This document shows positions 21,637-21,689 of a stretch of DNA of 57,568 bases, piece by piece. Source of the DNA: a virus. A program made the position numbers and the translations under genes. Positions within the stretch are counted from its first letter, which is position 1, and each line of letters opens with the position of its first letter. A model generated the notes under the pieces. The model had not been told where the DNA came from. It made no database searches and saw nothing but the letters and a program-made list of their open reading frames with translations. The DNA is taken from positions 1 through 57,568 of IMG/VR virus record IMGVR_UViG_3300017776_000014; one strand, 5' to 3'.

Positions 21637-21689
21637 ATGTAGGTGTCGGTGGGGCCAGGATGTAGGTGTCGGAAAACATGTAGGTGGAC
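21637..21689 (-). promoter_or_regulatory. Three tandem class B motifs (ATGTAGGTGTCGG x2, ATGTAGGTGGAC x1)
   Basis: Copies at 21637-49, 21660-72 and 21678-89, with spacings of 23 and 18 nt. A GGTGCAAC x2 direct repeat lies nearby at 21589-96 and 21607-14. Confidence 0.45.

Follow-up and report, generated by a model that had tools for sequence, protein, structure and literature searches.

Tandem copies of a short conserved word behind early terminators of a CRP-7-type marine phage are candidate early promoters

The early promoters of coliphage N4, which are read by an injected virion RNA polymerase, consist of a 5–7-bp inverted repeat with a 3-nt loop centred near −11 (PMC4496689). In T4-type phages, PeSL (promoter-early stem-loop) cassettes combine a terminator stem-loop with a sigma-70 early promoter between variable early genes (PMC2839356, PMC4122927). 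Phages of the CRP-7 type are common in coastal oceans (PMC6918029). The CRP-7 paper makes no mention of promoters, and a literature search for the word described below returned primers only. To our knowledge, nothing is known about transcription in CRP-7-type phages.

The whole stretch of DNA analysed here (the window) is a complete IMG/VR phage contig of 57,568 bp from an uncultured marine phage, with ends that overlap by 123 bp. Its closest cultured relative is Roseobacter phage CRP-7, which has the same gene order and is 36% identical in the RNA polymerase (RNAP) and 61% identical in TerL. The genome comprises two blocks, with the gene for a T7-like polymerase in one and that for a polymerase candidate in the other:

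22043 down to 4374, minus strand: block of small early genes, SSB, and nucleotide-metabolism and replication genes
4616–6895: T7-like RNA polymerase gene, which ends the minus-strand block
22347 around the contig junction to 4304, plus strand: block of terminase, portal, tail and ejection genes
741–4304: candidate virion RNA polymerase (1187 aa), within the ejection-protein block

Class B arrays and their surroundings in the window

We use the term class B for the minus-strand word (T/A)AACC(G/T)ACA(T/A), which takes the form AACCGACAT or AACCTACAT. Tandem copies of it follow terminators and head four early transcription units of the window. The three copies of ATGTAGGTG, the two of GGTGCAAC and the further arrays at 20452–20483, 19874–19903 and 14131–14153, all reported in the initial annotation of this DNA, were confirmed by direct reading; a weak site at 15985–16006, reported with them, falls within a 67-aa ORF, is unmatched in relatives and is not counted. 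Along the minus strand the elements are as follows:

21709–21736, minus strand: terminator-like hairpin and T-run ending the first early gene (22043–21744), just upstream of the first array
21690–21699, minus strand: degenerate variant copy AAACCGTCTA, additional to those in the initial annotation; in the arrays of this clade it adjoins the copy that comes first
21678–21687, minus strand: class B copy a, CCACCTACAT, in a slot also filled in L003, L098 and L105 (plus-strand reading ATGTAGGTGGAC, 21678–21689)
21660–21672, minus strand: class B copy b, CCGACACCTACAT (plus-strand reading ATGTAGGTGTCGG)
21637–21649, minus strand: class B copy c, CCGACACCTACAT, composed of the overlapping half-units CCGACA and CCTACAT; the last copy before the downstream unit (plus-strand reading ATGTAGGTGTCGG)
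21420–21636, minus strand: GC-rich conserved non-coding stretch of ~215 nt downstream of the first array, which includes the GGTGCAAC pair (21589–21596 and 21607–21614)
21254–21269, minus strand: class A 16-mer GTATAAGTCCCTTTAG, a T7-type promoter starting the next unit (SSB)
20496–20534, minus strand: 12-bp hairpin between the SSB gene and array 2
20452–20483, minus strand: array 2, AACCGACAT gg AACCTACAT gtt AACCGACAT, with an 11–12-nt period; precedes a tRNA-like non-coding island
19874–19903, minus strand: array 3, TTAACCTAT tacg CCGACAC t AACCGACAT
14168–14184, minus strand: terminator-like hairpin and T-run directly upstream of array 4
14131–14153, minus strand: array 4, AACCGACAA twice with 14-nt spacing; heads the operon 14103→4374 (DNA polymerase, primase-helicase, T7-like RNAP)

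On the minus strand, the region of the first array reads hairpin (21736–21709), T-run, AAACCGTCTA, gtCCACCTACAT, gttttCCGACACCTACAT and cctggccccaCCGACACCTACAT, with overlapping half-units 6–7 nt apart. The minus-strand sequences of arrays 2, 3 and 4 are AACCGACATggAACCTACATgttAACCGACAT, TTAACCTATtacgCCGACACtAACCGACAT and AACCGACAAgacttAACCGACAA, corresponding on the plus strand to ATGTCGGTT / ATGTAGGTT / ATGTCGGTT, to ATGTCGGTT and GTGTCGG (plus ATAGGTTAA), and to TTGTCGGTT twice, respectively. The order terminator–array is kept at all four sites: a hairpin precedes each array, which begins 12–20 nt past it. The last copy of array 3 ends 20 nt before the ATG at 19854, with the Shine-Dalgarno sequence (SD) AAAGGAG between them. 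Neither the GenBank phages (megablast) nor Rfam at the gathering threshold gave a match to the region of the first array, a relaxed Rfam threshold yielding sub-threshold matches only, and a tRNA search by ARAGORN returned none. Two ‘gaps’ of the simple ORF map (6896–7090 and 8878–9176) appear to be coding, not regulatory, and hold no class B copy; the first reads ...SPCYSCAGLLLQAGVTRVVYNN, resembling a dCMP deaminase C-terminus.

The first early gene of the window (22043–21744) has no array upstream. Its upstream region (22044–22290, minus strand) is free of class A and class B, as is that of L003; in both, only a G-free tract and a conserved AT-rich piece, TTTATATTCATAAATTATCTTCAACAATA, are present, and in L098 the latter is found upstream of the first array. 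The G-free tract (22054–22213 of the window, early strand; also in L098) is paralleled in CRP-7 (MK613349, locus L096) by ~830 nt that are nearly A-free on the early-gene strand, at 57270–58106, just upstream of gp01; the annotated gp72, on the strand opposite this A-poor stretch, is probably not a gene.

Several of these elements recur at the same places in relatives. Copy c and its downstream sequence are conserved in L098, L105 and L106; the variant-copy position (21690–21699) is matched in L003, L098 (three times) and L105; array 2 is identical in L098 at 4170–4200; and the array 4 site is orthologous, with a homologous 5′UTR, in G001 (50310) and G003 (19762). The stretch 21420–21636 is 91–95% identical at the nucleotide level in L098, L105 and L106, the sequence after it differing completely; the class A promoter follows it immediately in L098. 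It contains GTTGCACC twice on the minus strand (the GGTGCAAC pair) and ends with a further AACCGTCT (21430–21437), just before the SD of a 46-aa ORF (21404–21264). The fold of 21405–21640 is not better than that of shuffles (z = +0.97), and one compensatory base pair (CCGTATCCACGG / CCGGATCCCCGG) is seen; the stretch may be a leader or a small RNA. A 98-aa ORF at 21560–21264 is probably spurious as drawn; its first half is the GC-rich conserved stretch, and the 46-aa ORF, which has a proper SD, begins at 21404.

The homology of the window with L098, L003 and L105 breaks at 21685, 21425, 21271 and 20433, that is, at or beside class B copies, the AACCGTCT copy and the class A promoter, with the genes between these positions replaced. 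Within L098 itself, the terminator (four times), array, spacer and 5′UTR (three times) are repeated.

Occurrence, strand and site architecture among relatives

Same-strand CCGACA pairs within 30 nt occur four times in the window, compared with a mean of 0.045 and a maximum of 1 in 200 dinucleotide-preserving shuffles of it (0/200 reached four). Eight of the ten minus-strand copies of CCGACA lie in four intergenic pairs, and AACCGAC / ACCGACA emerged from an unsupervised count as the most intergenic-enriched 7-mers. Relatives were represented by 80 related IMG/VR loci obtained by a TerL search, the whole records of five relatives and further contigs. Across 266 kb of early regions from related IMG/VR phages of the CRP-7 group, a redundant set in which 59 distinct class B sites remain, the early-gene strand carries AACCGACA 84 times and the opposite strand 5 times. 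The corresponding forward/reverse counts in these regions are 54/12 for AACCTACA, 33/3 for AACCGTCT, and 4/1 and 8/5 for control words; whole related genomes contain 3–6 copies of the class B word versus 0–1 of the backwards word. Because of the 84:5 bias, we regard the question of orientation as resolved at the sequence level, with the minus (early-gene) strand the predicted functional one.

Conservation of the motif positions in related phages had been put forward initially as a check on function, and the word is indeed found at the same places in many relatives. The typical site in distant relatives (TerL 70–77%) consists of a terminator hairpin, a T-run, 3–6 nt and then TAACCGACA, often duplicated 33–61 nt downstream with its own T-run; the spacing between copies is 9–61 nt across relatives and 6–61 nt overall. 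An array also lies ahead of the very first early gene of L098, a close relative that shares the class A 16-mer and in which six arrays head six units within 4.4 kb. An IMG/VR-wide scan for AACCGACA-N(3-33)-AACCGACA, in which hundreds of chance matches are expected (rough arithmetic, assuming a collection of ~60 Gb), gave mostly chance or coding matches, e.g. Pro/Thr-rich peptide repeats, the terminator/T-tract context appearing only at CRP-7-group loci. A generic local-repeat-array detector was too noisy to be used. Five unrelated IMG/VR phages (L112, L143, L144, L152 and L164) carry arrays of an 11-bp unit, AACCGACAAGC / AAGTGACAAGC, ~450 nt upstream of a distant primase-helicase gene; these look like origin iterons, and their likeness to class B is probably due to chance. 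A third recurrent element in relatives, absent from the window, is a hairpin CACGC-N4-GCGTG followed by TC(T/A)TCT (L098 828–841 and 1704–1717; L003 14–27; G004 (L091) 10633, 12110 and 15814). Terminators or class B pairs precede it, and it may represent a 5′ hairpin of an RNA or a further site for a protein or polymerase.

Alignment of 44 non-redundant class B sites in a position weight matrix (PWM) reveals a compact element. The conserved part is AACC(G/T)ACA, whose core closes with GACA or TACA and tends to be followed by A/T, only 8–9 nt in all; the flanks carry little information. G is nearly excluded directly after the word (1/44). A T-run is present at most 23 nt upstream in 24/44 sites (55%), compared with 12% of random positions, T occupying −13 to −16 relative to the word's end in 26–29 of the 44, and a terminator-like hairpin precedes nearly every site. 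At no fewer than seven independent sites, i.e. at least seven, the distance from the word's end to the ATG is 12–20 nt with an SD between them (15 nt in L003, 14 and 16 in L073, 20 at window 19874, 17 in L027, 14 in L058 and 12 in L145); examples of the word–SD–start arrangement are AACCTACATcaaggagaatactATG (L003), AACCGACAcaaggagagttcaaATG (G004) and AACCGACATcaagaaaggagtagaaccaATG (window 19874). The mRNA must contain the SD that lies between word and ATG, which puts the predicted transcription start at the word's 3′ end or a few bases from it. Such a start would correspond to the mode of a single-subunit (phage-type) RNA polymerase, not to that of the sigma-70 holoenzyme.

Class B resembles T7-group promoters in having an AT-rich element around −17 to −13. 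It has neither ~17–23 bp conserved from −17 to +6 within one genome nor a TATA-like −4..−1 element with G at +1; class A does carry the TATA-like element with its G. N4-type hairpins (at least 4 bp in the 25 nt ending at the word) are found at 6/44 sites versus 19% of random positions, and a hairpin promoter of this type was rejected for lack of enrichment. Sigma-70 hexamers (−35/−10, 16–18 bp apart, with a start ~7 nt after the −10) are not present at class B sites and the PWM contains no second conserved block, in line with the earlier remark that the motif does not fit a −35/−10 spacing; the early block has no excess of sigma-70-like sites (29 vs 31.1 and 24 vs 24.8), none of which lies at the arrays. 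The −35/−10 promoter was rejected on these grounds and on the abutment of the word on the SD. Phased repeats at one locus with an AT-rich unwinding region or initiator gene, as expected of origin iterons, are not what is seen, the arrays occupying four loci in the window and six in L098. The PeSL-like composite, a terminator stem-loop plus an early promoter (here the putative function of the array) repeated between variable genes with joints at the cassettes, is found; its promoter part is not a sigma-70 early promoter. Further candidates were rejected by eye: a DnaA box, which matches at 6/9 positions but not at critical ones; CtrA TTAA-N7-TTAA, which fits a single site; Pho-box-like direct repeats, which would be misplaced with respect to the SD; a sigma-32 or ECF −10 likeness, for which the start-site geometry fails; and the T7 class II pause signal ATCTGTT.

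Two polymerases, two motif families and competing readings

The class A 16-mer is present in five exact copies, all of which face the next gene when read as GTATAAGTCCCTTTAG. In relatives, the analogous element retains CCCTTATAG at its 3′ end and differs upstream: in G002 it reads TATAGGGAGA, exactly as in T7, and CRP-7 has five copies of TATAGTCCCYTATTAAAAGG. Because of this T7-type ...TATAG/TTTAG +1 signature and its place before structural blocks, we agree with the initial annotation that class A would serve the T7-like enzyme. A face-to-face class A pair surrounds a lone plus-strand gene of the window (14930–15027) and is conserved in G001 (51205–51287) and G003, both with their own promoter version, TATATACCCCTTATAG.

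The 741–4304 protein looks like a single-subunit polymerase as judged by its motifs A (DGKTNG, 690), B (RGLNKMTTMTFGYGK, 766) and C (YDAF, 982), which occur in order; motifs A, B and C are likewise in order in its homologues. Motif B conforms to the R-x3-K-x7-YG signature of single-subunit polymerases. Searches of the PDB with the protein and with a four-sequence profile found no polymerase. The G003 homologue (31405–28955; 1342 aa) is ~150 aa longer, with an insertion between motifs B and C. The word is unchanged in all relatives in which both polymerases could be compared, the co-variation check proposed earlier; between phages sharing an identical word, the virion polymerase candidates are 30–35% identical and the T7-like enzymes 45–60%. 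The low identity of the former is not fatal to a pairing with class B, because T7 and SP6 polymerases, which are ~30% identical, share a −7..+1 promoter core.

The reading we favour, with a probability of about 0.5, is that class B sites are early promoters in terminator–promoter cassettes that delimit shuffled early-gene modules. The word would be the promoter core, single or tandem, heading early units directly after the previous terminator, and would most likely be read by a polymerase other than the T7-type enzyme of the phage. The earlier proposal of early promoter or regulator sites used by a reader other than the T7-like enzyme is favoured by the conservation of position and strand, by the location at unit heads after terminators and by the abutment on the ribosome-binding site. 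With two single-subunit polymerases, two intergenic motif families and class A taken, elimination points to the compact virion RNA polymerase candidate as reader of class B and to the T7-like enzyme as reader of the 16-mer, an assignment that we make tentatively.

Array 4 is informative with respect to timing. Located behind a terminator, it heads a 9.7-kb operon ending with the T7-like polymerase gene, and the site is orthologous in G001 and G003, so that its natural reader should pre-exist the T7-like enzyme. An injected polymerase or the host enzyme would fit best, and the start-site geometry argues against the latter. The only terminator-like call inside the operon 14103→4374 is a weak one within the DNA polymerase gene (10638–10616), taken as chance. 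The terminator before array 4 is imperfect, its T-run being 5 nt from the stem, and is absent in G001; class A read-through could therefore also feed the polymerase operon.

On this assignment, the virion polymerase would be injected with the DNA. It would activate the small early genes, small non-coding RNAs and, through the replication operon, the T7-like polymerase gene; tandem copies would raise the odds that the few injected molecules start. The conserved terminator–promoter cassettes may double as recombination joints between exchangeable early-gene modules. In its fullest form, a speculative one that we regard as possible rather than probable, the arrays would be double-stranded, hairpin-independent promoters of the compact (1187-aa) injected enzyme, with tandem copies capturing its few molecules, and the CRP-7-type group would need no host enzyme, two single-subunit polymerases and two promoter classes of its own being enough for the whole programme. 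Against the promoter reading, 8–9 conserved nt are far fewer than in T7-group promoters, the first early gene of the window lacks an array, and copies 6–12 nt apart cannot all be full promoters; a mixed model is possible, with promoter function in the last copy and recruitment or titration by those before it. Against the virion enzyme in particular, the N4 virion polymerase needs a hairpin, which is not found at class B sites, and a slowly evolving reader (a host factor or the T7-like enzyme) would explain the conservation of the word more simply.

The main rival, which we consider unlikely, is that the arrays are operators, i.e. sites for a sequence-specific DNA-binding protein of phage or host (e.g. 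ribbon-helix-helix or winged-helix) that coats the starts of early units to shut off or activate them, the true promoter lying elsewhere or overlapping. Copies packed so densely are uncommon among promoters and common among operators or iterons: half-units overlap 6–7 nt apart in the first array, array 2 and L098 (unit AACCTACATCTT) have a regular 11–12-nt period, a single locus of CRP-7 (1445–1506) carries AACCTTG five times at 11-nt intervals, in G002 a class A promoter is followed by more than ten copies of ATCTATG / ACCTATAC, and the fixed variant AACCGTCT always adjoins the leading copy. However, spacings of 33, 45, 49, 53 and 61 nt in relatives, with a T-tract for each copy, lack helical phasing; window arrays starting 12–20 nt after a hairpin and ending beside an SD leave no room for a separate promoter; and, the flanking genes being exchanged from one relative to the next, the arrays are not accompanied by any conserved gene for a candidate regulator. 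The tandem direct repeats, and the non-coding stretch that follows the first array, could also suggest iterons of a replication origin, or tandem promoters doubling as one, as at T7 phi1.1A/B. The AACCGACAAGC arrays ~450 nt upstream of primase-helicase genes in unrelated phages might seem to strengthen this suggestion, but they come from a scan expected to give hundreds of chance matches. The stretch behind the first array is GC-rich, not AT-rich, and the arrays are dispersed (four in the window, six in L098), variably spaced, and always oriented like the genes and beside SDs, which makes the origin alternative raised by the initial annotation very unlikely.

Other rivals keep the promoter function and change the reader. 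Host RNA polymerase promoters of an unusual kind, in which an alternative or phage-modified sigma or a host factor recognises the word, are rather improbable. Most phages with a T7-like enzyme, such as T7, T3 and SP6, use the host polymerase for early genes, which counts for this reading, and a word identical in phages with strongly diverged polymerases of their own is what a conserved host reader would produce. Nevertheless, the PWM contains no −35/−10 or −24/−12 partner at a fixed distance, the word as a −10 would put the start inside or after the SD, the upstream T-rich hexamers do not have the A that a −10 element carries at position 2, and the early block is not enriched in sigma-70-like sites. 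Less probable again is a second promoter class of the T7-like polymerase (cf. T7 class II vs class III), or a reversed assignment, in which the T7-like enzyme would read class B and the virion enzyme class A. It would account for the AT-rich tract ~13–16 nt upstream of a conserved core at the start and would match the better-conserved enzyme with the better-conserved word; the last G002 copy, AACCTATAG, resembles a T7-type initiation region (the last array copy in G002, TAACCTATAG, sits just before an SD). Yet class A and class B share no alignment, class A has the T7 signature TATAG(GGAGA) and drives structural genes, and class B heads the T7-like enzyme's own operon and, in L098, the first early genes, which creates a bootstrapping problem. 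The initial annotation had also left open a plus-strand reading, with SP6-like promoters (ATGTAGGTG...) firing antisense to the early block. Eight of the first nine nt of the SP6 promoter are identical, but the bases that follow, TCGGTGGGG, do not match SP6 ACACTATAG, relatives favour the other orientation 84:5, no plus-strand gene lies downstream and the phage's own T7-type motif is the 16-mer; the resemblance is a nine-base coincidence, and such promoters are hardly credible.

Early promoters in terminator–promoter cassettes thus being the preferred reading, class B and the 16-mer together give a concrete, testable two-promoter map of a CRP-7-type genome, in which class B marks early units, small non-coding RNAs, the replication operon and the joints of early-gene exchange between relatives. 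If the virion polymerase reads class B, the word would be the first hairpin-free promoter for an N4-family enzyme, and would provide a short, portable start signal for a new polymerase–promoter pair.

Comparison with known systems

Iteron and operator arrays (plasmid R1 parC bound by ParR, omega-protein heptads and phage origin iterons) resemble class B in their direct repeats with an 11–12-nt period, seen in the clade of the window and in CRP-7. They differ from it in that class B occupies 4–6 dispersed loci, is irregularly spaced in other relatives and is tied to the starts of transcription units. T7 A1-A2-A3 and phi1.1A/B likewise comprise tandem promoters heading early transcription, and the pair upstream of the replication genes recalls phi1.1A/B. 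In contrast, T7 A1-A3 are canonical host promoters, and no AT-rich origin region follows the class B arrays.

With the single-subunit phage promoters (T7, T3, SP6 and K11) and the 9-nt yeast mitochondrial promoter, class B shares a conserved word reaching the putative start and an AT/T-rich tract ~13–17 nt upstream; strict gene co-orientation and a place after terminators are further likenesses. The phage promoters have ~20 conserved nt, as against 8–9 in class B, which lacks a TATA-G initiation box, occurs in tandem copies 6–12 nt apart and has a start deduced from its geometry. N4 is similar in having several promoters with terminators in a block of small early genes, and a polymerase among the virion/ejection genes (here a candidate by motifs) in addition to a second, T7-like enzyme. 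Contrary to N4, class B sites show no hairpin enrichment, and the candidate enzyme of the window is one third the size of N4 gp50. The PeSL cassettes differ in their promoter part, class B being a short word in arrays without −35/−10 elements; they are alike in the repeated composite of terminator and (for class B, predicted) early promoter, in the breakpoints between relatives at the cassettes and in repetition within a genome, as observed in L098.
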